Source: an uncultured Roseburia sp. | Lineage (GTDB): Bacteria; Bacillota; Clostridia; Lachnospirales; Lachnospiraceae | Assembly: GCA_900539115.1 (NCBI GenBank) | Contig: UQAQ01000001.1 | Span: 21,368-85,367 of the forward strand | Length of the DNA: 64,000 nt | Direction of reading: 5' to 3' | In this document: positions 12,128-49,495 of the stretch, piece after piece | Position numbering within the stretch: position 1 is the first letter of the stretch | Layout of the letters: each line of letters opens with the position of its first letter | Notes under the pieces: generated by a model | What the model was told of the DNA's origin: nothing | What the model saw: only the letters and a program-made list of their open reading frames with translations | Databases searched by the model: none | Position numbers and translations under genes: made by a program

Positions 12128-12131
12128 TCGG

Positions 12132-12617: not shown

Positions 12618-12620
12618 CTA

Positions 12621-19374: not shown

Positions 19375-20247
19375 TCAGGACAAGAACCGTTTCAGATCGA
19401 AAAGTCCCCAGCCTTGTTTGTTGTGGGGCAGACCGAGATCGGTACAGCTGTTTTTTAACCGGATTTTGACTTCTTTTGGTTCATAAAACCGGTATTTTGG
19501 TAAACTTAAAAGTAAGGCGATGCCTCCACTGACAACCGGAGTTGCCATGGAGGTGCCGCTTTTTTTCGTATACGGAACTTTTTCGATGTTCGTATGATGA
19601 CAGCTGACGATATGGCTTCCCGGCGTGATGACATCGGGCTTTTTGATGCAATGGATGGTGGGGCCGGTGCCGGAATTTCCCTCTCTGCCATAATAACCGA
19701 CGGTAATGACTTTGCGGCTGTTTCCGGGAGCACTGATCGTACCGGCTTCCGGACCGCGGTTTCCGGCAGAAACCACGACCACGAGACCGGCATCCCAAAG
19801 TTCCTCTACTTTCCGCACGAGAGGAGAGGATTCATCAAATTGCTTTTCTTTGGCGGTGCCGGCGGAAATATTTACGATGTTGATGCCATAGCGCATTCGG
19901 TTTCGGAGAACCCAGTCGATGCCGGTGCAGATATTTTCGACGGTTCCTTCTCCGTAGCGGTTCAACACTTTGACTGCGACGAGATCCGCCCGGGGAGCGA
20001 TACCGCGGTACAATCCCCGGCTTGCCTGGCCGCTTCCGGCAGCAATCCCGGCGACGTGGGTTCCGTGGCCGTAGTCATCGTAAGGCTGGCGGGTGGAAGA
20101 AAGGACGTCATGCCATCCGACGATGCGCCCGCTAAAGTCCGGATGTGGGGAGATTCCGCTGTCGAGTATGGCGATGCAGCTCCCTGCCCCATAGATATGC
20201 GCCCCATGTGCATAAGAGGCTTTGACGATTTCACGGACACGATTCAT
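19375..20247 (-). CDS. Small intracellular subtilisin-like S8 peptidase (catalytic domain only)
   Basis: A 290-aa protein with AILDSGI (Asp), HGTHVAGIAAG (His) and GTSMATPVVSG (Ser). It has no signal peptide. Its His motif is identical to that of the 572-aa S8 at 12621. Confidence 0.8.
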   Translation of the reverse strand: MNRVREIVKASYAHGAHIYGAGSCIAILDSGISPHPDFSGRIVGWHDVLSSTRQPYDDYGHGTHVAGIAAGSGQASRGLYRGIAPRADLVAVKVLNRYGEGTVENICTGIDWVLRNRMRYGINIVNISAGTAKEKQFDESSPLVRKVEELWDAGLVVVVSAGNRGPEAGTISAPGNSRKVITVGYYGREGNSGTGPTIHCIKKPDVITPGSHIVSCHHTNIEKVPYTKKSGTSMATPVVSGGIALLLSLPKYRFYEPKEVKIRLKNSCTDLGLPHNKQGWGLFDLKRFLS

Positions 20248-20369
20248 ACGAAATCCCGCCTTTTACCCTTTTGTTTTAGTATATGGAAAGCACAAGAAAG
20301 ATGTGACTGCTGTTTACATCGCGTTAAAGATGTGTTATAATTATGTCAATTATACCTTGAGAATGGAGA

Positions 20370-22457
20370 ATGAAAAATATCATGGAAATGCCAATTATAC
20401 GTTTGAATGGTTCCTCTTATATCAATGATATGGAGTTAAAAGAAAGATATAAAGTATATAATGACAGCTGCTGGATCTCCCTTCTGTCTTTGGTGGGAAA
20501 CCCGGACGGAGCGATCGTTACGGTAGATGAACCGGTATCGCCGCTTTTGACGATGGATCTGGAAAAACGGTTGAAAACCGCATTGGAAGAAGACCCGGCA
20601 GATTTTCTTGTGGTAGATATGTGTTATACGGCGGGACACCGCCTGTGTGTGTGGAAAGACCAGGTGTTTACGAAAAATCCAAAATTCGAAGAAAGCCGTT
20701 TTTATGCGGAGCATCAGGACGAGATGGAAGAGATTGATGTGATGCGAGACCGGAATTTTGATTGGAAACCATATATGGACCGTTACCTGGAGCTGATTTC
20801 AAAATATTTTGACAAGGATCACATTATCCTTATCAAATCCAGATGCCCGAAGTGGTTTGCAACCCATACCCATGTGCGGAAAGTACAAAAGAAGAGCAGC
20901 AAAGCATACAACAGCCGCATCAAAGAATTGGAAGACTACTTTGTGGAAAAAACGGATCCGTATGTGATTGACATTTATTCCCATTATTTTTTGGACTTTA
21001 ATCACAAAAAGGGATATACCATGTCTTCTTACGAGAAACCGTTTTATCATCATGCGAGACGGCTGATTTCTTATATTATCCGCTATCAGCCGGAAAAACG
21101 GGTATTTACGGAAGATGAATTTTATATTCGTTTTGGGCGTTTTATCAAATATTATGATAATTTGTTTGCCAAAAATAACACGGCCCTTTTTATGGATGAC
21201 AGCAAATTTATCGATCATCTGATCCTGAGTCTGGGAAGACCGGTTTTGGTAGAATTTGAGTATGATATCGTAAAAATACAGCAGGAAGGGTATGCAAGTA
21301 TACAGGAGATCCTTGACAAATATGATTTCCGTTTTTCCGAAGGACTTTGCACCTGCCTGAAAGTGGTACAGGCTGTGGAAGAAGGCGATTTGTTTTGCGA
21401 AGGCGTGCAGTATGAAGCAATCTATGAGTATAAGATGAAGATTGTGAAAACTTATACGGAACTTGTTAAGAAAGAACTGGAAAAACGAGGCTGGCTGGAA
21501 GGCCCGCTGTATATCAATGAAGTGCATGCCGGAACTTTTGATGCCATTCTGCGTGCGCTGGATGCCGGAAAAGGGAAAGAAGCCAAAAAGATATTGTTTG
21601 CGGCAGCCGAAGAAGATTTTGAACACGACCGCATAAAAGAGTGCTATCATAAAGAACTGGAAGTGGACAAGCAGCTTGCGCCAATCCGTGCACTCAATGC
21701 CTTTTATGAGCCGGTTCAGGTGGATCTTTGGGGATCTTGCATTACCCGCGAGATTTTGAACGAAGATACCGGGCGTTTTAAGATTGGCAAATACGCATAC
21801 CGCAACAGCTTTTTATTTGCCTTTGACGAACCGATCCCTTATGACGATACGAAATTTGAGAATCTGTCGTTATTTGAAAACAGCAATTGGCGTGTCGGAT
21901 ATATCAAAAGTGCGTTCCACAAGGATCTGCCGGGACAGCTGGAAGCGACCGGTTCCAAGTGGCTGCTTCTTGATTTTTACGACCTGATCTGTGATGTCGT
22001 AAAATACCGGGGCGGCTATCTTACGGCAGACAGCGAAGTGCGTGGACTTGGCTTTTATAAAGAGATCAAAGACGACTGTGAATTGACAACCGTAGAGGAT
22101 GTGCTGAGTGATGAGGAGATCAAAGCACGTTTTGATACGTTTATCGAGTTTTTAAAACGCCGCTATGGAAAGCAGATCATTTTCATTAAAGCAGATGTAA
22201 AACTCAAATTTTTAGATTATCAACGTCGTAAAAAGAATATCCGCGGATATAAACAGGCGACTTTAAAGAAGAAAAAAGCCTTTTTGCAGAAATGGCAGGA
22301 TTATTTCGAAAAACAGATGGACTGTCACGTAATCGATTATGCGAAAGACTATGATGCAGATGATCTGTGCGTGTCTGGTGCATTCATGGTGCATTATGAA
22401 AAAGAATTTTACGAGAAAGGGTATCAGGCGCTTTTGGACATCATTTATAGAGGTTGA
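20370..22457 (+). CDS. Hypothetical 695-aa soluble protein built from two homologous ~330-aa modules (internal tandem duplication); first gene of the glycopolymer locus
   Basis: Module 1 (aa ~8–340) and module 2 (aa ~445–690) align. IILIKSR..KELEDYFVEKTDPYVIDIYSHYF..SSYEKPFY matches IIFIKAD..QKWQDYFEKQMDCHVIDYAKDY..HYEKEFY. Each module begins with a G-S-[SC] motif (NGSSY, WGSC). No TM segments and no recognisable catalytic signature were found. Confidence 0.5.
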   Translation: MKNIMEMPIIRLNGSSYINDMELKERYKVYNDSCWISLLSLVGNPDGAIVTVDEPVSPLLTMDLEKRLKTALEEDPADFLVVDMCYTAGHRLCVWKDQVFTKNPKFEESRFYAEHQDEMEEIDVMRDRNFDWKPYMDRYLELISKYFDKDHIILIKSRCPKWFATHTHVRKVQKKSSKAYNSRIKELEDYFVEKTDPYVIDIYSHYFLDFNHKKGYTMSSYEKPFYHHARRLISYIIRYQPEKRVFTEDEFYIRFGRFIKYYDNLFAKNNTALFMDDSKFIDHLILSLGRPVLVEFEYDIVKIQQEGYASIQEILDKYDFRFSEGLCTCLKVVQAVEEGDLFCEGVQYEAIYEYKMKIVKTYTELVKKELEKRGWLEGPLYINEVHAGTFDAILRALDAGKGKEAKKILFAAAEEDFEHDRIKECYHKELEVDKQLAPIRALNAFYEPVQVDLWGSCITREILNEDTGRFKIGKYAYRNSFLFAFDEPIPYDDTKFENLSLFENSNWRVGYIKSAFHKDLPGQLEATGSKWLLLDFYDLICDVVKYRGGYLTADSEVRGLGFYKEIKDDCELTTVEDVLSDEEIKARFDTFIEFLKRRYGKQIIFIKADVKLKFLDYQRRKKNIRGYKQATLKKKKAFLQKWQDYFEKQMDCHVIDYAKDYDADDLCVSGAFMVHYEKEFYEKGYQALLDIIYRG

Positions 22458-22535
22458 CAAGGTAGAAAAAGTGCTTTATACTTATATAAGATATGCCTTT
22501 TTTAGGCAGTAAAAGGGAAAGGTGGTAACCCCACG

Positions 22536-24293
22536 ATGAAAAACGTACTGAAAAAGTACAAATGGGAATTTGTCGCTGTGGCAGTATTAATGTTGTTGGT
22601 ATATGCTTCATTGGCGATTTCTTTCGATTTTAAAAATTATGACGTTTCTATGCCTATTGCTTACCAAGGCGGAGATGATTTTGGAACTGCTTATAAGCAT
22701 GCGAAAGTGGTTTCGGATAGTCAAAGTACGTGGATTTATGAGACGGAGCGGCTAGGTGCCCCATATGGAGCAGAATATTATGATTTTATGCCGGATTCGT
22801 TAATGAATGCAGATGTATTGTTCCTGAAGTTTTTTGGGCTGTTTTCCGAGGATCCGGTTGCGATTGTAAATATGACCATTATATTTTTGTTCTTTTTAAT
22901 TGCGTTGATATCTTATTTTGTAATGAGACAGCTGGGGATTCGGCAGGATTTTGCAGTGATAGGAACTTTGCTTTTTGATTTTATGTATTATCATTTTATG
23001 CGGCTGGTAAGTCATTTTTGCTTAAGTTCGTATGAATTTGTACCATTGTCGATTTTAATCTGTGTATGGCTGTGGAAAGATGATAAATTGTTTGAATTCG
23101 GAAAAGGATTCTTTAAATATAAGAAAAACTATCTTGTATTACTTTTCTTTTTTATGATTGCAAACAATGGAATTGGATATTACACATTTTTCACTTGTAT
23201 GTTTCTTGCTATTACCGGGATTTCCAAGGCAATGAAGCATCGTAGCTGGAAAGCAGTATTTCAAATGATTCGCATGGTGGTTTCGAATGTTTTGTTTATG
23301 GTAATTGCATTGATTCCGTGTATCATATACCAAATTCAAAATGGAGCTAATCTTACAGAACGTTCACTTGCGGATTCTGAATTGTATGCATTGAAGATTG
23401 TACAGTTGCTGATTCCGTATAAAGATTATGGAATACAAAAGTTACAGGAATATAATCAGGAATATTATCAGATATTTATCAAGACGGAGTCAATGACTTC
23501 GTACCTTGGTATTATGGCTGGCATTGGTTTTTTGGCATTGATTATTGGCTTGATGCGTAGACGGGAAATTGCCAGGCGGAGAGAACCGCTTGCCTTGTTT
23601 GTGGAATTAAATGTATTTGCAGTTCTTTTTGCTACGATGGGCGGCTTTGGTGGAATCTTTGCCAATTTTGTAACCAGCCTTGTGCGAGGAACTAACCGTA
23701 TTTCTATTTTTATCGCCTTTATGTCGCTTTCGACATTGGGGATATTAATGACACGATGGATGAAAAAACAGAATAAGTATTCTAAAATATGGAAGCCGAT
23801 TTGTGAAGTTCTTTTTTGCGCACTGGCAATATTTAGCTTGTATGATCAGGTCCCGGCGAGTGTGACAGGAGCAGCGGCGCAATTACAAGAAGAAAAGAAT
23901 TCGGACAGCCGGTTTATAGAAAAGATAGAAGCAAGTGTACCGGAAAAATCTATGATTTTTCAGCTCCCGTATCATCCGTATCCGGAGGGAGGTCCCGTGA
24001 ATCAAATGCAGGATTATCATTTGTTTATTGGATTTATGTATTCCGAGCAGTTACGGTGGAGTTACGGTGGAAGCAAAGGACGCGAGGGCGATCTTTGGTA
24101 TCAGCAGACTGCAGGAATGCCGGTAAAACAGATGATAGACGAATTGAAGAAAAAAGGATTTGCCGGAATTTATGTGGACAAGCGTGCTTATGATGAGGAG
24201 AGTTTTGCTTCTCTGGATGCAGCACTAAAAGCAGAACTTGATTGTGAACCGATCAACAGTGCAAACGGAAATTTATATTTTTATGAATTTTAA
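22536..24293 (+). CDS. Polytopic membrane protein (≥10 TM) with a C-terminal extracytoplasmic domain; putative GT-C-type glycosyltransferase or polymerase
   Basis: A 585-aa protein in an AT-rich region. Its architecture resembles the 728-aa protein at 31172. It has no nucleotide-binding motifs, which is consistent with the use of a lipid-linked donor. Confidence 0.45.
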   Translation: MKNVLKKYKWEFVAVAVLMLLVYASLAISFDFKNYDVSMPIAYQGGDDFGTAYKHAKVVSDSQSTWIYETERLGAPYGAEYYDFMPDSLMNADVLFLKFFGLFSEDPVAIVNMTIIFLFFLIALISYFVMRQLGIRQDFAVIGTLLFDFMYYHFMRLVSHFCLSSYEFVPLSILICVWLWKDDKLFEFGKGFFKYKKNYLVLLFFFMIANNGIGYYTFFTCMFLAITGISKAMKHRSWKAVFQMIRMVVSNVLFMVIALIPCIIYQIQNGANLTERSLADSELYALKIVQLLIPYKDYGIQKLQEYNQEYYQIFIKTESMTSYLGIMAGIGFLALIIGLMRRREIARRREPLALFVELNVFAVLFATMGGFGGIFANFVTSLVRGTNRISIFIAFMSLSTLGILMTRWMKKQNKYSKIWKPICEVLFCALAIFSLYDQVPASVTGAAAQLQEEKNSDSRFIEKIEASVPEKSMIFQLPYHPYPEGGPVNQMQDYHLFIGFMYSEQLRWSYGGSKGREGDLWYQQTAGMPVKQMIDELKKKGFAGIYVDKRAYDEESFASLDAALKAELDCEPINSANGNLYFYEF

Positions 24294-24332: not shown

Positions 24333-25112
24333 ATGAAAGCAGTTATTTTAGCAGGAGGATATGGAACAAGAATTAGCGAGGAAAGCCATTTGAAACCGAA
24401 ACCGATGATTGAAATCGGCGAGAAACCAATTTTGTGGCACATTATGAAAGAATACTCACACTATGGGATTAATGAGTTTATCATTTGCTGCGGATATAAA
24501 CAGCACATTATTAAAGAATACTTTAATGACTATTATCTGCACAATAGTGATATTACCTTTGATTTTACCGATGGAAATAAAATGACGGTTCATAATAATG
24601 TGGCAGAACCATGGAAAGTAACATTGGTGGATACCGGTCTGGATACGATGACGGGCGGCCGTGTGAAACGTGTTCAGAAATATGTAGGTGATGAAACCTT
24701 TATGCTTACATACGGCGACGGAGTTTCGGATGTAGATATTGCAAAATTGCTTGAATTCCATAAGGCACACGGGAAAATGGCTACATTGACTGCGATTAAT
24801 GTGGAACAGAGATTTGGTGTGCTGGATATTACGGAAGATGGATTTATCGAGAATTTCCGTGAAAAATCGAAGATGGATGGAAACCGTATCAATGCAGGTT
24901 ATATGGTATTGGAGCCGGGAATTTTTGATCTGATCGAAGGCGATTCTACCGTATTTGAAAAAGAACCATTGGAAAAAGTTGCCAAGATGGGCGAGCTCAA
25001 AGCTTATAAACATGATGGCTTCTGGCAGTGTATGGACACCAAGCGTGAAAAAGAAAAACTGGAAGAACTTTGGGCTTCCGGAAAAGCACCTTGGAAAGTC
25101 TGGGAAGACTAA
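24333..25112 (+). CDS. rfbF: Glucose-1-phosphate cytidylyltransferase
   Basis: MKAVILAGGYGTRISEESHLKPKPMIEIGEKPILWHIM closely matches Salmonella RfbF (DdhA). It is 259 aa long. Confidence 0.85.
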   Translation: MKAVILAGGYGTRISEESHLKPKPMIEIGEKPILWHIMKEYSHYGINEFIICCGYKQHIIKEYFNDYYLHNSDITFDFTDGNKMTVHNNVAEPWKVTLVDTGLDTMTGGRVKRVQKYVGDETFMLTYGDGVSDVDIAKLLEFHKAHGKMATLTAINVEQRFGVLDITEDGFIENFREKSKMDGNRINAGYMVLEPGIFDLIEGDSTVFEKEPLEKVAKMGELKAYKHDGFWQCMDTKREKEKLEELWASGKAPWKVWED

Positions 25113-25136
25113 TCGAAAAAATGGAGGAAGACCACG

Positions 25137-26186
25137 ATGGATTTGACATTTTATAAGGGGAAAAAAGTACTTATTACAGGACATACCGGTTTTAAAGGAA
25201 GCTGGATGTGCCGTACATTGATTCAGGCAGGGGCAGAGGTGACAGGATATTCCCTCGAGCCTCCGACGGATCCCAATCTGTTTTCTATGGCAGAGATTGA
25301 GGATAAGATGAATTCCGTAATCGGAGATATCCGTGATTTGGAAAAATTATCCAATGTTTTCCGGAAAGTACAGCCGGAGATCGTGATTCACCTTGCTGCA
25401 CAGCCGATTGTAAGAGATTCCTATAAGGATCCGGTTTACACGTATGAGACCAATGTGATGGGAACCGTAAATATCTGTGAATGCGTACGCCGGAATCCGT
25501 GTGTGAAGAGTTTTCTCAATGTCACAACGGATAAGGTATATGAAAATAAAGAATGGGAATGGGGATATCGTGAAAATGAGCCGCTGGATGGCTACGATCC
25601 ATATTCCAACAGTAAATCCTGTTCCGAATTGGTGACACATAGTTACAAAAATTCATTTTTCAATGAGACCGGCGTTGCGGTATCGACAGCGAGAGCGGGT
25701 AATGTCATCGGCGGCGGTGATTTTGCCAACGACCGTATTATCCCCGACTGCGTGCGCGCGGCAAAAGAAAAGAAAGATATCGTGATCCGTAATCCATTTT
25801 CCACGCGTCCTTACCAGCACGTTCTGGAGCCGGTCATTGCGTATCTGATGATTGCCAAAGAGCAGTATGAGGATGCCAAATACCAGGGATATTACAATGT
25901 AGGACCGGATGAGACAGACTGCGTGACAACCGGTGATCTGGTCGACCTGTTTGTGGAAAAATGGGGCGAAGGCATGAAATGGGTCAATCAGTATGACGGA
26001 GGTCCTCATGAGGCAAATTTCCTGAAACTGGACTGTTCCAAATTAAAGACAACATTTGGATGGAAACCACGCTGGACCGTATCCGAAGCTTTGGATAAGA
26101 CGGTAGAATGGACAAAGGTATATTTTGCCGGCGAAAGTGTGGCAGACATTATGGACAAGCAGATTAGAGAATTTTTAAATCGATAA
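25137..26186 (+). CDS. rfbG: CDP-glucose 4,6-dehydratase
   Basis: An SDR with GHTGFKGSW and the YSxSK catalytic motif (YSNSKSCSE). It is 349 aa long and follows rfbF. Confidence 0.85.
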   Translation: MDLTFYKGKKVLITGHTGFKGSWMCRTLIQAGAEVTGYSLEPPTDPNLFSMAEIEDKMNSVIGDIRDLEKLSNVFRKVQPEIVIHLAAQPIVRDSYKDPVYTYETNVMGTVNICECVRRNPCVKSFLNVTTDKVYENKEWEWGYRENEPLDGYDPYSNSKSCSELVTHSYKNSFFNETGVAVSTARAGNVIGGGDFANDRIIPDCVRAAKEKKDIVIRNPFSTRPYQHVLEPVIAYLMIAKEQYEDAKYQGYYNVGPDETDCVTTGDLVDLFVEKWGEGMKWVNQYDGGPHEANFLKLDCSKLKTTFGWKPRWTVSEALDKTVEWTKVYFAGESVADIMDKQIREFLNR

Positions 26187-26216
26187 TAATTACTAAAATC
26201 AGAAAGGATTAATATT

Positions 26217-27554
26217 ATGTTTGAAAATCAGAATGAAAAACAGGCAAGAGAAAGTATTTTGGAGATGGTAAAAGAGTATTGTGACAAATACCACAATCAG
26301 GAAAAACCTTTTAAAGAAGGCGACCGTATCCCATATGCTTCCCGTTATTATGGACATGAAGAGATGGTAAATCTGGTAGACAGTTCCCTCGAGTTCTGGC
26401 TTACTTCCGGAAGATATACCGATCAGTTTGAAAAGGAATTTGCAGAGTACCTTGGAATTAAATACTGTTCTTTGGTAAACTCCGGTTCTTCCGCAAACCT
26501 GCTCGCATTTATGGCACTGACTTCTCCGTTGATGGGAGACCGCCGTATTATGCCGGGAGACGAAGTGATCACTGTGGCTGCCGGATTCCCTACAACGATT
26601 GCGCCGATCATTCAGTATGGTGCGGTTCCGGTATTTGTTGATATGACCATTCCACAGTACAATATGGATGCTTCCATGCTGGAAGATGCCCTTTCCGATA
26701 AGACAAAAGCGATCATGATCGCTCATACATTGGGAAATCCATGGGATCTTGGAGCAATCAAAGAATTTTGTGACAAACATAATTTATGGCTTGTAGAAGA
26801 TAACTGTGATGCACTGGGATCCAAATATACGATCAACGGCGAAGAAAAATTCACCGGTACGATCGGTGACATCGGTACTTCCAGTTTTTATCCGCCACAC
26901 CATATGACAATGGGTGAAGGTGGAGCGGTTTATACCGACAATCCATTGATCCATAAGGCAGTCCGCTCTTTGAGAGACTGGGGAAGAGACTGCGTATGTC
27001 CATCCGGAAGAGACAACTTGTGCGGACATCGTTTTGACAAGCAGTATGGAGAACTTCCACTTGGATATGACCACAAATATGTATATTCTCATTTTGGATA
27101 CAATTTGAAAGCAACCGATATGCAGGCAGCAGTAGGATGTGCTCAGCTTGCTAAGTTCCCTACATTTGTAGAAAAGAGAAGACATAACTTTGACCGTCTT
27201 CGTGCTGCTTTGGAAGAAGTAGAAGATAAACTCATTCTTCCGGAACCATGTCCAAATTCAAAACCAAGCTGGTTCGGATTCCTTCTTACCTGTCGCGAGG
27301 GCGTAGATAAGAATAAAGTGGTTCAGTATATCGAAGATCATGGCGTACAGACCCGTATGCTCTTTGCAGGAAATATCGTAAAACAGCCTTGTTTCGATGA
27401 AATGCGTGCATCCGGAAAAGGATACCGCGTAGTCGGAAATCTTGCTGTGACAGACCGTATCATGAAAGATACATTCTGGCTTGGTGTATATCCGGGTATG
27501 ACCGATGAAAAGATTGATTATATGGCAAAAGTGATCAAAGAAGCTTTACAATAA
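26217..27554 (+). CDS. rfbH: CDP-6-deoxy-D-xylo-4-hexulose-3-dehydrase (E1), PMP-dependent, with [2Fe-2S] cysteine motif
   Basis: It matches Salmonella RfbH over its whole length: GDEVITVAAGFPTT, FYPPHHMTMGEGG (His replaces the usual PLP-Lys) and DWGRDCVCPSGRDNLC (the C-x-C-x7-C Fe-S motif). It is 445 aa long. Confidence 0.85.
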   Translation: MFENQNEKQARESILEMVKEYCDKYHNQEKPFKEGDRIPYASRYYGHEEMVNLVDSSLEFWLTSGRYTDQFEKEFAEYLGIKYCSLVNSGSSANLLAFMALTSPLMGDRRIMPGDEVITVAAGFPTTIAPIIQYGAVPVFVDMTIPQYNMDASMLEDALSDKTKAIMIAHTLGNPWDLGAIKEFCDKHNLWLVEDNCDALGSKYTINGEEKFTGTIGDIGTSSFYPPHHMTMGEGGAVYTDNPLIHKAVRSLRDWGRDCVCPSGRDNLCGHRFDKQYGELPLGYDHKYVYSHFGYNLKATDMQAAVGCAQLAKFPTFVEKRRHNFDRLRAALEEVEDKLILPEPCPNSKPSWFGFLLTCREGVDKNKVVQYIEDHGVQTRMLFAGNIVKQPCFDEMRASGKGYRVVGNLAVTDRIMKDTFWLGVYPGMTDEKIDYMAKVIKEALQ

Positions 27555-27571
27555 AAGGAAGGAAGAAGCAG

Positions 27572-28381
27572 ATGACCAGTGAAGAACTTGCTTTAGCAAT
27601 GCGAAAAGACACTGTTCAGATGATTCATAACAGTCATGCGGCACATATTGGTGCCGTATTGTCTGTTATTGATATTGTGGCAGTGCTTTATCATGATGTG
27701 ATGAATTATGATTGTAAAAATCCGAAAATGGAGACAAGAGACCGTCTTGTGCTTAGTAAAGGACATGCAGGTGTAGCCATTTATACGGCTCTTGCAGAAT
27801 GCGGTTTTTTTGATCGTTCGGAATTGAAAAAATATTATACAGACGGCAGTGTGTATTCCGGCCATGTATCCAGTAAAGGGGTGCCGGGAGTCGAAGTTTC
27901 TACCGGAAGTCTCGGACATGGAGCTGGTATGGCGTGTGGTATGGCAATTGCGCTCAAACGGAATGGCAGCCCAAGCCGTGTCTTTGCAATTATCGGAGAC
28001 GGTGAGTGCGAAGAAGGAGAAATCTGGGAAATGGCACTGCTGGCAAATAAACAGAAACTGGGAAATTTTACAGTCATTATTGATCATAACAAATGGCAGG
28101 CTCTAGGAAGATGCGAAGATGTTATCGCTTTTACGGATCTGCCACGCCGCTGGGAAGCCTTTGGCTGGAATGTCATTGACGTAAAGGATGGAAATGATCA
28201 TAATCAGTTGAGAGATGCGTTCTCGCACTTGTCAGAAGAAAAACCAAATGTGATCGTTGCCAATACGATAAAAGGAAAAGGGGTTTCCTTTATGGAAGAT
28301 ACTCTTTTGTGGCATTACCGTGATCCGCAGGGAGAAGCTTATGAACAGGCAATGCAGGAACTGGGAGGTGAATCCTTGTGA
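27572..28381 (+). CDS. Transketolase, N-terminal (ThDP-binding) subunit of a split enzyme
   Basis: It is 269 aa long. It has the ThDP motif GDGECEEGEIWE, the SKGHAG motif and a His cluster. Confidence 0.8.
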   Translation: MTSEELALAMRKDTVQMIHNSHAAHIGAVLSVIDIVAVLYHDVMNYDCKNPKMETRDRLVLSKGHAGVAIYTALAECGFFDRSELKKYYTDGSVYSGHVSSKGVPGVEVSTGSLGHGAGMACGMAIALKRNGSPSRVFAIIGDGECEEGEIWEMALLANKQKLGNFTVIIDHNKWQALGRCEDVIAFTDLPRRWEAFGWNVIDVKDGNDHNQLRDAFSHLSEEKPNVIVANTIKGKGVSFMEDTLLWHYRDPQGEAYEQAMQELGGESL

Positions 28382-29298
28382 GAAATCATTTGATTAATGA
28401 ATTGACCGCAATCGCAAAAAAAGATAAAGACGTGATGCTGATTGCCGGAGATCTTGGCTTTGGAGTGTTGAATGAATTTATGGAGACACTGCCGGATCAG
28501 TTTATCAATGCGGGAATCTGCGAGCAAAATATGGCAAGTGTGGCCGCCGGTCTTGCGTTGGAAGGAAAGAAAGTATATGTGTATTCCATAGGAAACTTTC
28601 CGGGAATCCGATGCTTAGAGCAGGTAAGAAATGACATCTGCTACCACAATGCCAATGTAAAGATTATTGTTGTAGGTGGCGGATTTGCTTATGGACAGCT
28701 CGGAATGAGCCATCATGCGACAGAAGATCTGTCTATTATGCGTTCTCTGCCAAATATGACAGTGTATTCCCCTTCGGATCCGCTGGAAGCTGTGGATGTG
28801 ATCCGTGAGGCTTACGCGACAGAAGGGCCGGGATATATTCGTCTCGGAAAAGGTGGCGAAAATGAACTCTACGACCATGAGATCCAAAAAGGATTTCAGC
28901 CGGTGATCACGCTGCAGGAGGGAGAGAAAGTTGCGCTTTTGGCTACCGGATCTCTTTTGGAAGAAGCAAAGACAGCTTGCGAACAACTTGCGGAGGAAGG
29001 CGTTCATGCGGGACTTTATGATTTTGTCAGCGTGAAACCACTTTCCGAAGAAAAAGTACGTGACATTGCTAAAAAATACCAAGTAATTGTCACAATTGAA
29101 GAGCATACTATAGTCGGAGGCTTCGGAGGAGCGGTTTGTGAAGTGGTTGCCGGAATGTCAGGGGAACGTGCAAGTGTTATCCGCATGGGACTGCAGGATG
29201 AGTATACTACAATTGTAGGAAGCCAGAGGTTTTTAAGAGAATATTATCATATGGTAGCAGAAGATATTGTAAATAAAGTAAGGGAGATTGTTGGATGA
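28378..29298 (+). CDS. Transketolase, C-terminal (pyrimidine-binding/TK-C) subunit
   Basis: A 306-aa protein whose start overlaps the N-subunit stop (GTGA). It has a TK pyrimidine-binding domain and a C-terminal domain. Confidence 0.8.
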   Translation: MRNHLINELTAIAKKDKDVMLIAGDLGFGVLNEFMETLPDQFINAGICEQNMASVAAGLALEGKKVYVYSIGNFPGIRCLEQVRNDICYHNANVKIIVVGGGFAYGQLGMSHHATEDLSIMRSLPNMTVYSPSDPLEAVDVIREAYATEGPGYIRLGKGGENELYDHEIQKGFQPVITLQEGEKVALLATGSLLEEAKTACEQLAEEGVHAGLYDFVSVKPLSEEKVRDIAKKYQVIVTIEEHTIVGGFGGAVCEVVAGMSGERASVIRMGLQDEYTTIVGSQRFLREYYHMVAEDIVNKVREIVG

Positions 29299-30209
29299 AA
29301 CGAGTAGTAGTGACGGGAGCTTCCAGTTTTATTGGAGCCTATCTGATACAGGAATTGCTAAAAGATACAGAAAATGAAATTTATGCGGTGATCCGGCCGA
29401 ATTCGTCAAATCGTGACCGGGTGCCTCAGGATGACAGAGTGAAGATTGTAGAATTGGATATGGCTCAGATAGAAGAACTGCCGTCCTATGTACCGGGACA
29501 GGTGGAAGGATTTTATCACCTTGCCTGGAACGGAACTCGTGGAGAGACCAGGGATGATGAGAAAAAGCAAAAGGAGAATTATGAGGCTTCCCTTCTTGCA
29601 GCAAAAACGGCAGAAAAACTGCAGGCAAAGATGTTTTTGGGAAGCGGTTCTCAGGCAGAATACGGGATTGTGAAAGAGGTTGTTTCAGAAGCCGATGAAG
29701 CGAAGCCGACAACTGCTTACGGAAAAATGAAAAAGCAGACGTATGATGCTTTGAAAGAGTATTTTGCCAATACTTCTGTGAAATTGTACTGGGTTCGTAT
29801 TTTTAGTGTATTTGGACCGGAAGATTATGAAGGAACGCTTATCATGTCATCGCTCGATAAAATGCAGAAAAATGAACCATTGCAATTGACCGAGTGCATT
29901 CAAAAATGGGACTATATCTATATACGAGATGTGGCAGATGCGCTGGCCGGCTTTTTGACAGGACAGGCAGAAGCAGGCATTTACAATGTGGCATCCGGCC
30001 GGGTGCGACCATTGAAAGAATTTGTGCTGGAAATGAAAGAAATTTTACATTCGGAGTCAGAGATTCAATTTGGTGCGGTGCCTTATGGCCCGGCAGGTCC
30101 GGTAAATCTTTGCCCGGATGTCAGTAAAATAAAAAGACAACTTAAGTGGCAGGCAAAAACAAAATTTGATGAAGGAATTGAAGAAATCCTTAAGAAGAAA
30201 TGGAGATAA
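29295..30209 (+). CDS. NAD(P)-dependent sugar-nucleotide reductase/epimerase of the CDP-paratose/abequose synthase (RfbS/RfbJ) type
   Basis: It has the SDR fold with GASSFIG, a YGKMK catalytic pair and WDYIYIRDV (compare RfbS RDFLYIKDL). It is 304 aa long and is coupled to the transketolase C-subunit gene. Confidence 0.65.
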   Translation: MKRVVVTGASSFIGAYLIQELLKDTENEIYAVIRPNSSNRDRVPQDDRVKIVELDMAQIEELPSYVPGQVEGFYHLAWNGTRGETRDDEKKQKENYEASLLAAKTAEKLQAKMFLGSGSQAEYGIVKEVVSEADEAKPTTAYGKMKKQTYDALKEYFANTSVKLYWVRIFSVFGPEDYEGTLIMSSLDKMQKNEPLQLTECIQKWDYIYIRDVADALAGFLTGQAEAGIYNVASGRVRPLKEFVLEMKEILHSESEIQFGAVPYGPAGPVNLCPDVSKIKRQLKWQAKTKFDEGIEEILKKKWR

Positions 30210-30211: not shown

Positions 30212-31168
30212 ATGAAAAAGCGAATTAGTGTATTGATACCAACGTACAACGAAGAAGAAAACGTCGTGCCATTAAGCGAAGCAATTGTGGCAGAGTTTCA
30301 AAAAAGTCTTCCGCAATATGAGTATGAAATTGTTTTTATAGACAATGACTCTACCGATACTACAAGAGATAAAATTCGTATGATCTGCAAGAAAGATCCG
30401 CAGATCAAGGCTATCTTTAATGCAAAGAATTTTGGACAATTTAATTCACCATATTATGGTTTGATGCAGACTACGGGAGAATGCGTAATCCTTATGTGTG
30501 CGGATTTCCAGGATCCGATTGATATGATTCCCAAATTTGTTGCAGAATGGGAAGCGGGCAATAAAATTGTGATCGGAATTAAATCGAAAAGTAAAGAAAA
30601 TAAAATTATGTATTTCTTGCGAAGCTGTTATTATAAGCTCATCAAAAAGATGTCGAGTGTAGAGCAGATTGAACATTTTACCGGGTTTGGCTTATATGAC
30701 AGAGGGTTTATCGAAGTATTGAAAGAGCTGGATGACCCGACTCCGTTTCTTCGCGGAATTGTAGCAGAACTCGGATATAAGAGAAAAGATATAGAATATC
30801 AGCAGGAAAAAAGACGTGCCGGAAAGACACACAATAATTGGTATAGTTTATATGACGCGGCGATGCTTGGGTTTACATCCTATACAAAAGTGGGGATGCG
30901 GATCGCTACGATCGCAGGCTTCATATTGTCTGGGATCAGTGTTGTAGTTGCCTTGATATACCTGGTCTTGAAATTGATTTTTTGGGATCGTTTCGTGGCA
31001 GGTATGACACCAATTCTTTTGGGAATATTTATATTTGGATCGATTCAATTGTTTTTTATCGGACTGCTTGGCGAATATATAATGAATATTAATTCCCGAG
31101 TGACACACCGTCCGCTTGTGATTGAGGAAGAAAGAGTAAATTTTGATAAAGCAGGAGATGAGGAATAA
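30212..31168 (+). CDS. GT2 polyprenyl-phosphate sugar synthase (GtrB/CsbB/DPM1-like) with C-terminal TM helices
   Basis: ISVLIPTYNEEENV..FIDNDSTDTT is the DPM1-like GT2 pattern. Two C-terminal TM segments follow. The start was moved to the ATG at 30212, behind GGAGA. Confidence 0.75.
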   Translation: MKKRISVLIPTYNEEENVVPLSEAIVAEFQKSLPQYEYEIVFIDNDSTDTTRDKIRMICKKDPQIKAIFNAKNFGQFNSPYYGLMQTTGECVILMCADFQDPIDMIPKFVAEWEAGNKIVIGIKSKSKENKIMYFLRSCYYKLIKKMSSVEQIEHFTGFGLYDRGFIEVLKELDDPTPFLRGIVAELGYKRKDIEYQQEKRRAGKTHNNWYSLYDAAMLGFTSYTKVGMRIATIAGFILSGISVVVALIYLVLKLIFWDRFVAGMTPILLGIFIFGSIQLFFIGLLGEYIMNINSRVTHRPLVIEEERVNFDKAGDEE

Positions 31169-31171: not shown

Positions 31172-33358
31172 ATGAAAAAAGAGAATAATGTAAAAAAAAT
31201 GAGATGGAATATGAAAAATCCGGACAGTTTAAAATGGTATTTTTTGATCGGCGCGTTGATCGGAGCCGTGTTGTTTGTGCTGATCTATGGATTTAGTGTT
31301 TTGAATGTGACAAACGATGCCTGGCTTTTGACGGGAAAAGATCTTCAGCAGCATTACATTGGCTGGAAGTATTACCGCGATGCAGCATGGACTTTTCCGA
31401 TTGGTTTACATGATGGTTTAACACATCCATATATGGTAAGTGTTCTTTATACAGACTCGATTCCATTATTTGCCATTTTCTTTAAAGCACTGTCTCCACT
31501 GTTGCCGGAGACGTTTCAGTACTTTGGATTGTTTGGCTTGATGTGTTATATGTTGAACGGTGGTTTTGCGGCATTGATTGTGGCAAAAATTCGGAAGAAT
31601 AAATTGTACTGTGCTATGGGAAGTGTGTTCTTTATCCTTTCTACACCTGTATTGCAGCGTATGTTTGGATTGTTGACACAAAATTCTCGTCATACTTCAC
31701 TGGCAGCACACTTTTTGATTCTGGCGCCGATTGCAATCTGGATGTACCGTGATCGTTTTCAGAAAATTTGGAAAGCCGCAGCTGCATTTGCAATTCTGGG
31801 AGCTCTCTGTGTTTTGATTCAGATGTACATTATTTTTATTGTAGGTGGACTGATGTGTGGCTATCTGCTTCATAGTTTGTTGGAAGAGCGTAAATGGAAA
31901 CGTGTATTTATTGTATTTGGAAGTTTTGTGGCAGCTTTTTTGGTAACCTTCTTTGTGGTTGGTGGATTTACCGATGTACTGGATTCAGGAAGTAACGGAT
32001 TTGGACTGTATTCAGCCAATCTGAATGCATTAATCAATCCATATGAATATTCTTCGTTCTTCCCTGGAATGGGAATGCGAAGCGGCCAGTATGAGGGATT
32101 TGCTTATCTGGGACTTGGTATGATCGTATTGTGTGCTATTGGTATCGGATTATTGATTCGTCGTATGATTCAGATGCACAAAGTAAAGAAACTGTGGATT
32201 CGGATGAAACAGTTTATTAAAAAGCATGTCAGTGGACTGGTTTCCCTGTCGATTGTTGTCATTGTATTTGGGTCTTTGGCACTTACAACCTGGGTATATA
32301 TTGGAAAACATATTGTTTTACAGGTATACCTTCCGCAATTTTGTTATGATGTTCTTGCTATTGTACGTTCTTCCGGACGTTTTATCTGGGTGATCATGTA
32401 TATGGCGATGATTTTTGGACTATATATGGCAGCAAGAATGATCCGCAATAAAAAAGTTTGTACGATCATTGTCGCAGTGTGCCTTTGTCTTCAACTTATG
32501 GATCTGGCAAAACCAATTTCCCGGATTCATAAACAGTATACATCAGAACCTGTGGCGGAAGAGGATATGGTAAAAAATGCTTTTTGGGATACGCAGTTAA
32601 AAAATTATAAACATATTGTATATTATCCGGTAGCAGGATATGGTTTGTATCAGATGATGCAGGTCGGAACAAAGGCTTCTATGGTAGAGGGGATGGATGT
32701 AAATTATTTTTACATGTCTCGCTTTATTAAATATAGTTTGATCGAAAAAGAAAATAAAGAGATTAAAAAGAAGTTTATGAATAATGCACTGGATGAAGAT
32801 ACCCTTTATATTGTAGATTACCGTAGTGCACATAAATATAAAAATGTGGCCAATTTTTATGAAGTAGACAATAAAATTTTAGCTTCGAAAAAACCAATTG
32901 CAGATGTTCCGGTTTACCGGGATGTATATTTGAGTGCAGAAAGTCCTTATGTAGAACTTGATTTTTCAGATCAGGGGCTTGGAAAGAAATTTGCACACAG
33001 CGGATGGAATGAGACAGATTTCGGAGATGATGGAACTTGGACTTCCGGTCAGAGTGTTGTTCGTCTTTTGTCAGGAGGTGCTAAGAAAGCGCATGTTACG
33101 GTTGAATATGAAGCCGGAAAGAAGAAGGGAACAACAAAAATTAAGGTTAACGGAAAGGAACGAGCCAAACTGAAAAATAACGAATCCGGCATCGTCGAGT
33201 TTGATACAACGCTTAAGACTACGACAAATGAGCATAAGGGTGAAGGCGTTAACTGGCTGTTCTTTAACACAGATAGTGTATTTAAATCAAAACACAATGA
33301 TGATGATATTACTTGCGGAATCTACGTTAAGAAGATTACGGTAACGTATCTGCGGTAG
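31172..33358 (+). CDS. Large polytopic membrane protein (728 aa) with a ~230-aa C-terminal extracytoplasmic domain; putative GT-C glycosyltransferase using a lipid-linked sugar
   Basis: It has ≥12 TM helices and lies immediately downstream of the GtrB-like gene. This is the classic GtrB + GT-C pairing. Confidence 0.45.
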   Translation: MKKENNVKKMRWNMKNPDSLKWYFLIGALIGAVLFVLIYGFSVLNVTNDAWLLTGKDLQQHYIGWKYYRDAAWTFPIGLHDGLTHPYMVSVLYTDSIPLFAIFFKALSPLLPETFQYFGLFGLMCYMLNGGFAALIVAKIRKNKLYCAMGSVFFILSTPVLQRMFGLLTQNSRHTSLAAHFLILAPIAIWMYRDRFQKIWKAAAAFAILGALCVLIQMYIIFIVGGLMCGYLLHSLLEERKWKRVFIVFGSFVAAFLVTFFVVGGFTDVLDSGSNGFGLYSANLNALINPYEYSSFFPGMGMRSGQYEGFAYLGLGMIVLCAIGIGLLIRRMIQMHKVKKLWIRMKQFIKKHVSGLVSLSIVVIVFGSLALTTWVYIGKHIVLQVYLPQFCYDVLAIVRSSGRFIWVIMYMAMIFGLYMAARMIRNKKVCTIIVAVCLCLQLMDLAKPISRIHKQYTSEPVAEEDMVKNAFWDTQLKNYKHIVYYPVAGYGLYQMMQVGTKASMVEGMDVNYFYMSRFIKYSLIEKENKEIKKKFMNNALDEDTLYIVDYRSAHKYKNVANFYEVDNKILASKKPIADVPVYRDVYLSAESPYVELDFSDQGLGKKFAHSGWNETDFGDDGTWTSGQSVVRLLSGGAKKAHVTVEYEAGKKKGTTKIKVNGKERAKLKNNESGIVEFDTTLKTTTNEHKGEGVNWLFFNTDSVFKSKHNDDDITCGIYVKKITVTYLR

Positions 33359-33380: not shown

Positions 33381-34835
33381 ATGGAAAAATTACGTAAACG
33401 GTTAAATGCTTGGAATGATGGAAAGGGAGGCCCAAGAAAAGGAGATTGGATGGCAGCTCTTGCTATCGTTGCGATTTTGACGTTGTTTTTTTGCTTTTTG
33501 AAGGATTTCAAACTTACGGTGACGCAGTCATTAACGTTTGATTCTTGTTTGTTTAATGGAAGATTGAAGGATTTTTATACTATTGTAAACAAACAGGCAT
33601 TGTCTGGGTACTACGATGCTGTCTGGGGCAAAAATTTAAGTGCCGGTGCGAATTATTCCATCATTAATTACGCGACACTGGGAGTGTTATGTCTTCCGAT
33701 TTATGTGATAGAGAAATTAGCACATATTACAATTCCTTTTGTTGTTTATGAATTGGAATTGAAATTGTTATTTGCTGTGGCTGTTCTTTATCTTACAAAG
33801 GTTCTTGCAGATATTTGTACAGCAGTTTCAATGAAAGAAGAGACGAAAAAGTGGGTAACGTTCTGCTTCCTTACTTCACCGATTTTATGGTATGGATTTT
33901 TGATGATCTCTCAGATGGATATCTTTGCCGTATTATTTATGGTTTTAGGACTGCGTGCTTGGTTACAAAAGAAAAAGATATGGGAATTGGCGTTTTTTGC
34001 CATAGCGGTATTTTACAAACCGCTTGTTTTGATTGGTTTGATTCCATTGTTTTTACTTCGTGAAAAAAGGATCAGCTATATTTTACGAGATTGTATTGTG
34101 TCGGTACTTGGTTTGCTTTTGCAACAGATTTTTTATGGATCAGATCCGGGATATCAACGGGTGCAGAAGTATATGAGCGGATTGTATAGTTTTTGGGAAC
34201 GTTTATTCAATGCGGGAATTCCGACGACTCGAAATGTTTATACGGCAAATAGCAGTTATTTTATCATTTTGTTTATATTGATCTGCATTGTGGCTTACAG
34301 TATTCATAACGTGACAATGCAGCTTGCTTTTGGTTTGCCGATGCTTAGCTGGCTGTCATTTATTTTATTTGTTCAGTGGCATCCAAACTGGCTTTTCTAT
34401 ATGGTGCCGTTTGCAGTTATGATGTTAGGTTTTAGTTACCGTAAAAAACTGTTGTGTCTGATTGAGTGTGTATTTAGTGTATGCTGGCTGGCTGTATGTG
34501 CGCTGGGGTGGCTGTTTAATTATGATAATGATTTGATAAACGGCGGTGTTTTTTCGCAGCTTTTGGGAATTCATACGGAAGGCGGAGAGTTTGGTACCAT
34601 TTATCCGATTCTTGTACAAAAAATGGCAGGAATTCCGGTGGACCTTTATATTTCATTATTATCCGCAGTATTGGCAGCGTGGATGGCAGCAGTTGGATTT
34701 GATTTATACCGGAACCGAAAGGACATGAAAATGGGGAAAAAAGAGATGACATTTGAGCGTGGACCTGTATTACTCCGAAGCCTTCCGATGATGTTATTTA
34801 TACTTTATTCATTTGCAATTTGTTTTATCTCTTGA
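33381..34835 (+). CDS. Polytopic membrane protein (484 aa); putative GT-C glycosyltransferase or Wzy-like polymerase
   Basis: It has ~12 TM helices and no soluble catalytic motifs. Confidence 0.4.
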   Translation: MEKLRKRLNAWNDGKGGPRKGDWMAALAIVAILTLFFCFLKDFKLTVTQSLTFDSCLFNGRLKDFYTIVNKQALSGYYDAVWGKNLSAGANYSIINYATLGVLCLPIYVIEKLAHITIPFVVYELELKLLFAVAVLYLTKVLADICTAVSMKEETKKWVTFCFLTSPILWYGFLMISQMDIFAVLFMVLGLRAWLQKKKIWELAFFAIAVFYKPLVLIGLIPLFLLREKRISYILRDCIVSVLGLLLQQIFYGSDPGYQRVQKYMSGLYSFWERLFNAGIPTTRNVYTANSSYFIILFILICIVAYSIHNVTMQLAFGLPMLSWLSFILFVQWHPNWLFYMVPFAVMMLGFSYRKKLLCLIECVFSVCWLAVCALGWLFNYDNDLINGGVFSQLLGIHTEGGEFGTIYPILVQKMAGIPVDLYISLLSAVLAAWMAAVGFDLYRNRKDMKMGKKEMTFERGPVLLRSLPMMLFILYSFAICFIS

Positions 34836-34879: not shown

Positions 34880-35431
34880 ATGAATAAGATAGCAGAAGTA
34901 TTATGGAACTTGATTGAAACAATCGTCCGTGCAGTGTTCGGTGTTATATTGAAGATTGCACACAAAGAACTGAACGAAGAGCAGTGGGAAACCTTGTTTC
35001 AATTTGTGAAATTTGGTTTGGTCGGTGTGTGGAACACCATCTTTAACTATGTGATCTATTTGGTGAGTTTGATTGCTCTGCAGGGAGCCGGCATTGATAA
35101 GATGACAGTGTTAGGATTTGACAATGCGCCTGTTGCAGTTTGGATTGCAACCGCAATCGGATTTTTGATCAGTGTATTTGTTTCGTTCCTGCTTAACAGC
35201 CGTTTTGTATTCAAATTAGAAGAAGGAAAGTCAAGAAGTTTTGGAAAAGCCTTATTAAAGACCTATCTTTCTTATGGAGTGACCGGAATTGTGTTGAACC
35301 CGGTTTTGAATACCGTATGGGTAAGTGTTTGCCATATTTCTGATCGAATCGCACCACTTATCAGTTTGGTTATTGCCATTCCGATTAATTTCCTGATGAA
35401 CAAATTGTGGGCCTTTAAGGCAGAAGAATAA
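34880..35431 (+). CDS. GtrA-family membrane protein (lipid-linked sugar flippase-like)
   Basis: A 183-aa protein with 4 TM helices. The motif VKFGLVGVWNTIFNYVIYLV is typical of GtrA. Confidence 0.7.
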   Translation: MNKIAEVLWNLIETIVRAVFGVILKIAHKELNEEQWETLFQFVKFGLVGVWNTIFNYVIYLVSLIALQGAGIDKMTVLGFDNAPVAVWIATAIGFLISVFVSFLLNSRFVFKLEEGKSRSFGKALLKTYLSYGVTGIVLNPVLNTVWVSVCHISDRIAPLISLVIAIPINFLMNKLWAFKAEE

Positions 35432-36220: not shown

Positions 36221-36243
36221 GTTAAAGGACAAAGAGTGATAAT

Positions 36244-37206: not shown

Positions 37207-37234
37207 ATACAAATTTAAGAGGAAAGGAAGAACT

Positions 37235-38305: not shown

Positions 38306-38331
38306 GATTTTACAATAAATAAAATGAATAG

Positions 38332-39390
<1,059 letters not shown>

Positions 39391-39489
39391 TCTTTTATAT
39401 GAAAACGGCGCCGGGATTAACCGCATATGTGGGCGATGCCAGCGCCTTTTTCACATATTGGATCATTATCAATGAAAGTGAATGAAGGC

Positions 39490-40437: not shown

Positions 40438-40452
40438 AGGAGGATTATAAAA

Positions 40453-42126: not shown

Positions 42127-42147
42127 TTGTAAGAATGAAAATAATGA

Positions 42148-42190
42148 GGCACCAATTTGATGAACTTGAATTGGTGCCCCTTGTCATGTT
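42148..42190 (+). terminator. Rho-independent terminator after the phosphomutase gene
   Basis: A perfect 10-bp stem (ggcaccaatt / aattggtgcc) with an 11-nt loop, followed by a T-rich tract. Confidence 0.55.
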
Positions 42191-42205
42191 ATGTAGGAGG
42201 TCAGA

Positions 42206-49486: not shown

Positions 49487-49495
49487 AATTAGACT

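Follow-up and report, generated by a model that had tools for sequence, protein, structure and literature searches.

We identified, in 64,000 nucleotides of DNA from an uncultured Roseburia sp. (contig UQAQ01000001.1, positions 21,368 to 85,367; this whole stretch is called the window, and its positions are counted from its first letter), an operon that, to judge from its genes and their relatives elsewhere, probably builds a C-branched CDP-3,6-dideoxy sugar for wall decoration, with a split transketolase (TK) acting as the enzyme that adds the branch at C4. The operon occupies 24.3-35.4 kb of the plus strand, is tightly packed from RfbF through GtrA, and is a cell-envelope glycan decoration module. 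Its genes are as follows:

24333..25112, plus strand: RfbF/DdhA, glucose-1-phosphate cytidylyltransferase (TIGR02623, 405 bits, curated cutoff 300; PF00483)
25137..26186, plus strand: RfbG/DdhB, CDP-glucose 4,6-dehydratase, giving CDP-4-keto-6-deoxyglucose (TIGR02622, 453 bits, cutoff 278)
26217..27554, plus strand: RfbH/DdhC (E1), 3-dehydrase dependent on pyridoxamine phosphate and [2Fe-2S] (NF011936, 718 bits, cutoff 423)
27572..28381, plus strand: TktN, N-terminal PP-domain subunit of a split transketolase-family enzyme dependent on thiamine diphosphate (ThDP) (PF00456, Transketolase_N)
28378..29298, plus strand: TktC, Pyr and C domain subunit of the same split ThDP enzyme (PF02779, Transket_pyr; PF02780, Transketolase_C)
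29295..30209, plus strand: extended short-chain dehydrogenase/reductase (SDR), proposed YerF-like side-chain ketone reductase (PF01370)
30212..31168, plus strand: family 2 glycosyltransferase (GT2) acting on polyprenyl phosphate, GtrB/ArnC/PgfS type (PF00535)
31172..33358, plus strand: DUF6311 membrane protein, candidate GT-C-type extracytoplasmic transferase by inferred role (PF19830, 99 bits)
33381..34835, plus strand: membrane protein with about 10 transmembrane (TM) segments by hydropathy scan (no Pfam or NCBIfam match)
34880..35431, plus strand: GtrA-family protein, presumed flippase for a lipid-linked sugar (PF04138, 66 bits)

RfbF, RfbG and RfbH lie where an earlier sequence-only reading of this DNA had placed them, each scoring above the cutoff of its curated model. 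That reading had also described TK genes lodged between E1 and the reductase with overlapping ends, and this was confirmed: TktN and TktC overlap by GTGA (28378-28381) and TktC and the SDR gene by ATGA (29295-29298). A Shine-Dalgarno-like GGAGG or AGGGAG precedes the start in each overlap, an arrangement that suggests co-translation of the TK with the SDR. The GT2 start at 30212 was chosen after gene calls on identical contigs.

YerE-like enzymes occupy the transketolase slot in related loci

In yersiniose synthesis, YerE uses pyruvate and YerF reduces the side-chain ketone. We sampled five homologues of the window SDR (34-48% identity) independently of TK, and all five of their loci, numbered L098 to L102 among the related loci, place the SDR beside or near a ThDP carboligase, which is YerE-like in four cases and a TK pair in one. 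The gene order is RfbF-RfbG-RfbH-GtrA-(YerE-like)-SDR-GT2 in L098 (Pelosinus sp. UFO1), with identities to the window proteins of 46% for the SDR, 70% for GT2 and 63% for RfbH, and RfbF-RfbH-(YerE-like)-SDR-GT2-RfbG-GtrA in L099, with 39%, 67% and 80%, respectively. The SDR adjoins a YerE-like enzyme in L100 (SDR 35%) and directly follows the TK pair in L101 (48%), and in L102 (34%) the YerE-like enzyme is encoded in the same operon, not directly adjacent. Placement of the SDR right after the ThDP enzyme in a CDP-sugar locus consequently holds in the window, L098, L099, L100 and L101. The GT2 proteins of L098-L100 are 67-70% identical to that of the window, and those of eight TK loci are 63-95% identical to it. 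The ThDP enzymes of the YerE-type loci have their best structure matches in 5AHK and 8RPH, which we take to be PpYerE and JanthE; structures exist for both of these enzymes (PMC12247030).

The SDR itself has no specific NCBIfam match, and its best structural matches are generic epimerases at no more than 60 bits. The RfbS/RfbJ-like label that it had been given in the sequence-only reading was not confirmed, as it lacks a specific family match and its homologues partner ThDP carboligases; judged by gene context, it looks like a YerF-type side-chain reductase. The presence of either a YerE-like enzyme or a split TK in the same slot of an otherwise orthologous pathway points to non-orthologous replacement, which argues for the TK as the C4-branching enzyme and for the SDR as YerF-type rather than a C4 reductase of the RfbS/RfbJ kind. 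These orthologous loci also lend comparative support to an earlier suggestion for the window, namely that a TK may perform YerE-like branching and yield a dihydroxyethyl-branched dideoxyhexose. The idea of a TK as brancher is not wholly new, having already been proposed for Streptomyces split TKs (PMC12247030).

L102 has further genes of its own. Over 1827-8822 it encodes the YerE-like enzyme, an HMGL-like aldolase, a HAD hydrolase, a methyltransferase, the SDR and GT2 in that order, and GT87 genes lie upstream of this group; a 4-hydroxy-2-oxoacid donor could come from the aldolase, as in pathways of the erwiniose or caryophyllose type.

The split transketolase keeps its cofactor site and changes its acceptor site

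TktN matches the N chain of a split TK (6YAK) at 218 bits and TktC matches 6YAJ at 182 bits, with DXS as the second-best structural matches. The best sequence matches of TktC, 52-62% identical, were found among several thousand proteins annotated as 'transketolase family proteins'. Residues are numbered as in E. coli TktA, with the sequence used verified at 15 landmark residues. The window enzyme keeps H26, H66, H100, the GDG motif (D155), N185, E411, H473 and R358, and a phmmer alignment revealed an equivalent of H261, so that all five canonical TK histidines are retained. It resembles canonical TK, including the split TK of Carboxydothermus hydrogenoformans (6YAK/6YAJ; PMC7661550), in fold, domain split, ThDP/Mg motifs, catalytic Glu and the five histidines; the cofactor and catalytic residues that mark a transketolase are thus in place. 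The YerE-like architecture (TPP_enzyme_N/M/C, related to acetohydroxyacid synthase, AHAS) was not found in the window enzyme, which belongs to the TK superfamily.

In contrast to canonical TK, the window enzyme carries S385G, H461G, D469L, E468Q (Q, S or A among homologues), F434I, R91Y and Q118H; the TktN changes R91Y and Q118H are specific to the subfamily, and R520K is found in its CDP-linked group. All 14 aligned TktC homologues have VGGGFAYG(Q/S/A)LGMSHHATED in common, VGGGFAYGQLGMSHHATED is invariant among those 14, and GGGFAYG(Q/S/A)LG stands in all of them in place of the canonical THxGxxxGEDG. In canonical TK the donor C1 hydroxyl is bound by H100 and H473, phosphate by S385 and H461, and the acceptor by D469. 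Only R358 is kept among the acceptor and phosphate residues by which a true transketolase was judged (R358, S385, H461, D469 and R520), whereas the canonical split TK of C. hydrogenoformans retains all five; the pair was therefore not classed as a true transketolase. Mutation of R358, S385, D469 or R520 alters the acceptor specificity of E. coli TK (PMC7661550). Retention of the cofactor and catalytic residues alongside changes at S385, H461 and D469 suggests that ThDP and ketol-donor chemistry has been conserved and that the acceptor/phosphate site has been rebuilt.

The transketolase subfamily is widespread in glycan loci

A genome scan with one genome per species recovered the TK subfamily from at least 593 species genomes, spanning Firmicutes, Bacteroides and other phyla. 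Gene context, read within flanks of up to 10 kb, was annotated for the best 80 loci, and a classifiable glycan-type context was present in 68 of these. A PglC-type phosphoglycosyl transferase (PGT), a reductase and the TK pair stand together in capsule-type clusters at 54 of the 80 loci, the reductase being an aldo-keto reductase (AKR) in 40 and a classical SDR in 14. At 13 loci the TK pair stands with RfbF/RfbG and an extended SDR, and the same GT2 and GtrA are usually encoded there too; one locus carries both arrangements, and 12, mostly on truncated contigs, have no classifiable context. A pentose-phosphate context was never seen around the subfamily in the loci examined.

E1 is encoded in just 6 of the 13 CDP-type TK loci, and a GtrA gene likewise in 6 of the 13, as well as in L098 and L099. 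In a neighbour-joining tree of TktC, the CDP-linked TKs cluster together, with E1-containing and E1-less loci intermixed inside the cluster. The order RfbF-RfbG-RfbH-TktN-TktC-SDR recurs in unrelated glycan settings (Wzx/Wzy, ABC-transporter and flagellin-island loci), so the synteny of the TK genes with the rfb genes, raised in the sequence-only reading as a point to check, is conserved in other taxa. Many gut-metagenome contigs carry an identical TktN with the same operon, and the closest genome record is the metagenome-assembled genome Eubacterium sp. SUG77 (JALEKC01; TktC 92% and RfbH 97% identical). Our search of the literature on TK in O-antigen, capsule and flagellin loci turned up no more than domain annotations made without comment, as in Actinoplanes wps-2, and no account of this widespread Firmicute/Bacteroides family.

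The tightly linked PGT-type module (54 loci among L016, L017 and L020-L097) comprises the PglC-type transferase, an AKR or classical SDR, TktN and TktC, with a median gap of about 20 bp between the reductase and TktN, and occurs in Firmicutes, Bacteroides, Nitrospirota, Atribacteria and Propionibacteriaceae. The module may make a branched 6-deoxy-N-acetylhexosamine (HexNAc) as initiating sugar. Among the E1-less CDP-type loci, a PF13469 sulfotransferase-family protein and an APH/choline-kinase-like kinase are encoded between TktC and the SDR (L019, 4903-6730; L046, 10957-12799; L096, 10924-12796; L043, 11813-12826), a possible sign that the side chain's new hydroxyl becomes sulfated or phosphorylated. 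In L015, a flagellin island of Clostridium beijerinckii without E1, rfbF, rfbG, tktN, tktC, the SDR gene and a TylF-like O-methyltransferase gene lie between two flagellin genes, with a 934-bp interval between rfbF and rfbG that has no called gene; this gene content predicts a branched, methylated 6-deoxyhexose on flagellin.

E1 is intact and its dedicated reductase is missing from these loci independently of the transketolase

The window E1 aligned over its full length with Yersinia E1 (PDB 3BCX; 518 bits). In this alignment the His that substitutes for the pyridoxal phosphate lysine is kept (SFYPPHHMTMGEGG; HH motif), as are the cluster cysteines (EDNCDALGS; RDCVCPSGRDNLC; pattern C...CxC...x7C), in agreement with the intact Fe-S motif noted earlier. 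Since the active-site His and the cluster cysteines are both present, an external electron donor would be needed. The usual donor, E3, had been reported absent in the sequence-only reading, and we also found no match to it in the 64-kb window: a regular expression for the plant-type 2Fe-2S motif gave nothing credible, and tblastn with an AscD-like probe, whose architecture was verified as Fer2 + FAD_binding_6 + NAD_binding_1, returned nothing at E<=1 from either the window or 100 related loci. E3 was likewise not found by motif and tblastn in any of the nine TK loci containing E1, or by tblastn in the YerE-type Firmicute loci, of which L098 and L099 have E1. A dedicated, locus-encoded E3 is generally missing from E1-type 3-deoxygenation in Firmicutes, and this is unrelated to TK. 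The E1 homologue SpnQ functions with general ferredoxin or flavodoxin systems (PMC8987622).

TK was also found where E1 is lacking. No tblastn trace of RfbH was detected in seven CDP-type TK loci (L015, L019, L027, L043, L046, L082 and L096), and in L022 (Harryflintia acetispora) rfbG and tktN flank a 50-residue RfbH remnant (8959-9108, 44% identity); E1 evidently decayed there, with the TK-SDR-GtrA-GT2 genes still intact. Because E3 is missing from YerE-type loci as well, and TK occurs without an intact E1 in these eight CDP-type loci, the missing E3 and the TK are not linked, contrary to what had been implied from the window alone.

A proposed pathway to a branched dideoxyhexose and its alternatives

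By strong family assignment, RfbF converts glucose 1-phosphate and CTP to CDP-glucose, RfbG forms CDP-4-keto-6-deoxyglucose, and E1 removes the 3-hydroxyl to give CDP-4-keto-3,6-dideoxyglucose, with electrons that probably come, in place of a dedicated E3, from a general ferredoxin or flavodoxin. TktN/TktC would take a ketol donor (hydroxypyruvate or a ketose phosphate), form dihydroxyethyl-ThDP and add the dihydroxyethyl unit to the C4 ketone, producing a tertiary alcohol with a 4-C-hydroxyacetyl branch. Reduction of the side-chain ketone by the SDR would then yield CDP-3,6-dideoxy-4-C-(1,2-dihydroxyethyl)hexose. GT2 would move this sugar to undecaprenyl phosphate, GtrA would flip the lipid-linked sugar, and the DUF6311 protein would attach it to a wall polymer, probably a teichoic acid encoded downstream.

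A broader reading, which we advance more tentatively and place slightly short of an even chance, extends this chemistry to the whole TK class of at least 593 genomes. Its members would C-glycolylate NDP-4-keto sugars, which are CDP-linked in this operon and, in the capsule module PGT-AKR-TK, probably UDP-HexNAc-linked; the result would be a family of undescribed branched octoses in the walls, capsules and flagellins that anaerobes of the gut and the environment make. In alleles such as L013 and L065, TK and a JanthE/YerE-like enzyme would work in tandem to give longer, doubly elaborated side chains.

Several points weigh against the TK as C4 brancher. L013/L014 and L065 encode the TK pair plus a YerE-like enzyme in the same locus, which simple one-for-one replacement does not predict; the two carboligases may represent tandem elaboration of a longer side chain. 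A CapD/PglF-type 4,6-dehydratase lies within 10 kb in a minority of the PGT-reductase-TK loci, so that the acceptor class for the whole subfamily is not secure. Ordinary yersiniose would result if the donor were pyruvate or DXS-like, and no ketone-accepting sugar TK has been characterised (PMC12247030).

L013 (3604-15369) and L014 represent an alternative allele at the same chromosomal site as about 19.4-35 kb of the window, in the order tktN-tktC-rfbG-rfbH-(JanthE-like ThDP enzyme, 605 aa)-SDR-GtrA-671 aa-GT87-rfbF-GT2. Their RfbH is 99.6-100% identical to that of the window and their TktC only 80%, and the upstream S8 peptidase and DUF6270 genes are in common. L065 is an independent co-occurrence of TK with a YerE-like enzyme, accompanied by a sugar C-methyltransferase.

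The alternative that survives best, although we regard it as unlikely, keeps the TK in the pathway and denies it the branching of C4: the enzyme might prepare or shorten a donor or precursor, or lengthen a side chain begun by another enzyme. In this operon the SDR would then act on C4 and leave the sugar unbranched, or else the TK would yield a product other than the one proposed. The two-carboligase loci, the 4,6-dehydratase often not seen within 10 kb in the PGT-AKR-TK class and the want of a demonstrated ketone-accepting sugar TK (PMC12247030) are all in keeping with it. However, the window operon holds no other carboligase for the TK to assist, and ThDP carboligases consistently accompany the SDR family. 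GT2, moreover, would be expected to recognise the final sugar, and its 67-70% identity between TK-type and YerE-type loci implies similarly shaped, hence branched, products.

A less probable alternative, to which we assign little weight, retains branching by the TK with pyruvate as donor, as in DXS, so that a non-homologous enzyme would yield ordinary yersiniose with a 1-hydroxyethyl branch. DXS is likewise of the TK superfamily and supplies the second-best structural matches, and YerE-type loci share both GT2 and the SDR. Against this stand the five retained TK histidines, H100 and H473 among them, and the coexistence of both enzymes in L013 and L065, which identical products hardly explain.

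Very improbable is a role for the TK in place of E3, in which oxidation of dihydroxyethyl-ThDP (compare the ferricyanide reaction and PFOR) would feed the [2Fe-2S] cluster of E1 and the SDR would be a plain C4 reductase. The TK does directly follow E1, E3 is absent from the window and all nine E1-containing TK loci, and the TK occurs alongside a YerE-like enzyme in L013 and L065. The distribution nevertheless largely refutes this role: most subfamily loci (54 PGT-type, seven CDP-type) are without E1, L098 and L099 encode E1 and lack both E3 and TK, and E1-containing and E1-less loci are intermixed in the TktC tree.

Least probable of all, and scarcely credible, is the coincidence entertained in the sequence-only reading, an ordinary pentose-phosphate TK placed by chance in an operon for plain paratose, abequose or tyvelose with E3 encoded elsewhere: TK-family membership is clear and TktC is 52-62% identical to annotated transketolase family proteins, but those best matches themselves belong to the specialised subfamily (the GGGFAYG(Q/S/A)LG motif in 14 of 14), S385, H461 and D469 are changed here and retained in the canonical C. 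hydrogenoformans enzyme, 68 of the 80 best loci have a glycan-type context, and the start/stop overlaps suggest co-translation with the SDR.

Relation to known systems

The YerE/YerF pathway to yersiniose A (Yersinia pseudotuberculosis O:VI; PpYerE, ErwE and JanthE) resembles the proposed one in its CDP-4-keto-3,6-dideoxyhexose precursor, made by DdhA-C homologues, and in having a ThDP-dependent enzyme build onto the C4 ketone before the ketone of the side chain is reduced, as proposed here; in Firmicutes, a YerE-like gene and the TK pair share the slot before the same SDR and GT2 families. The two differ in that YerE belongs to the AHAS-like decarboxylase superfamily, whereas the window enzyme is a two-subunit member of the TK superfamily. 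The likely ketol donor here would give a glycolyl branch and YerE gives an acetyl branch; the window locus has no E3, and its sugar would take a polyprenyl-phosphate route through GT2, GtrA and a GT-C enzyme rather than enter an O-unit.

Split TKs have been proposed, without proof, to transfer hydroxyacetyl groups to keto sugars in miharamycin and amipurimycin biosynthesis and in 13 further Streptomyces sequences (PMC12247030). Compared by description only, they share with the window enzyme the predicted passage of a hydroxyacetyl unit onto a keto sugar to give a tertiary alcohol, but serve actinomycete nucleoside antibiotics, whereas the present family would serve a primary cell-surface glycan and extends across Firmicutes, Bacteroides and others. 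The steroid-17,20-desmolase DesAB of Clostridium scindens is a split TK that cleaves a tertiary alpha-ketol to a cyclic ketone (PMC3735941, PMC12065433). Again by description only, it parallels the window enzyme as a split TK of gut Clostridia that interconverts a tertiary alpha-ketol (C17-OH, C20=O, C21-OH) with a cyclic ketone and a C2 unit, and its operon also encodes a side-chain ketone reductase (DesC/DesE); unlike the reaction proposed here, DesAB works in the cleavage direction, the reverse of our proposal, on steroids (the cortisol side chain) and in a catabolic operon.

RfbF, RfbG and the Fe-S E1 are clear equivalogs of the corresponding enzymes in the Salmonella and Yersinia CDP-paratose/abequose/tyvelose pathway (RfbF/G/H/I with RfbS or RfbJ). 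The window departs from that pathway in the absence of E3 (RfbI/DdhD/AscD), in the inserted ThDP enzyme, and in an SDR that is not identifiable as RfbS or RfbJ and groups by context with carboligase-partner reductases. Three-component glycosylation systems (GtrA/GtrB/GtrC; CsbB/YfhO; PgfS-type) likewise have a GT2 with C-terminal TM segments, a GtrA-family protein and a large polytopic membrane protein; here, unlike in those systems, the donor would be a CDP-sugar and the membrane protein is DUF6311, a candidate transferase.

To our knowledge, only YerE-type and PDH-E1-type enzymes are known to branch keto sugars with ThDP. According to a 2025 review, no TK that accepts a ketone has been characterised and the candidates do not go beyond 13 Streptomyces sequences (PMC12247030). 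The window locus and its relatives offer abundant natural, soluble-looking TK candidates with a defined NDP-sugar acceptor, and the exchange of TK and YerE inside one pathway amounts to a natural experiment. Two positions of the S385G, H461G and D469L signature, S385 and D469, are those that engineers mutate to retune TK acceptor specificity. If the proposal holds, common gut Firmicutes should bear new branched sugars on their surfaces. Strain-to-strain variation of the locus makes it probable that these sugars are antigenic, and phages may use them as receptors.

Lipid-linked transfer genes and flanking regions

GT2 matched PgfS (186 bits) and ArnC (105 bits) along their full length, in neither case reaching the cutoff, and has two C-terminal TM segments by hydropathy scan; the same scan assigned the DUF6311 protein about nine TM segments followed by a soluble C-terminal part. 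The protein with about 10 TM segments (33381-34835) is conserved in L001-L009 and L018, and some strains (L003-L006) have an extra 524-aa gene before gtrA. One further membrane protein is encoded directly upstream of rfbF:

22536..24293, plus strand: 585-aa membrane protein with about 8 TM segments by hydropathy scan (no family match)

In other strains this protein is swapped for one of 578 aa, with variants of the gene in L003-L005 and L007, and a DUF6311 match was found in four of the six loci having the 578-aa protein. No similarity was detected between the 585-aa protein and the DUF6311 protein of the window. The upstream protein is possibly a second transferase of the module.

The left flank of the variable cassette is conserved and consists of a minus-strand S8 peptidase gene (19375-20247) and the gene for a DUF6270 protein (20370-22457). 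The region's best promoter-like site, 20313-20341, is at the DUF6270 gene; together with 22454-22482 it scored highest in a promoter and terminator scan whose overall site count was near chance and which gave no convincing internal terminator.

Downstream, a second decoration module (35513-44869) encodes a short GT2 (35513-36220), phosphomannose isomerase, GDP-mannose pyrophosphorylase, Gmd, a GDP-4-keto-6-deoxymannose reductase-like SDR, a PGM/PMM protein and a YfhO-family membrane protein (42206-44869), a gene set that suggests a GDP-6-deoxyhexose side chain on teichoic acid. It is followed by ribitol-phosphate teichoic-acid genes (44838-52589): a GT2 and TagF fusion (44838-47519), a 399-aa protein without family, a TarI-like cytidylyltransferase (48752-49486), a TarJ-like dehydrogenase (49496-50518) and a TagF and MptE-like protein (50532-52589). 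This teichoic acid is probably the polymer decorated by the branched sugar, and, given the downstream modules, the operon is one cassette among several that decorate wall polymers.

Scans of the window against Rfam and for tRNA genes gave no match, including at a local G+C peak (12001-14000; 0.516 against about 0.43). Overlapping open reading frames occur in this peak, one on the minus strand (12621-14339) and two on the plus strand (12729-13355 and 13524-14123).

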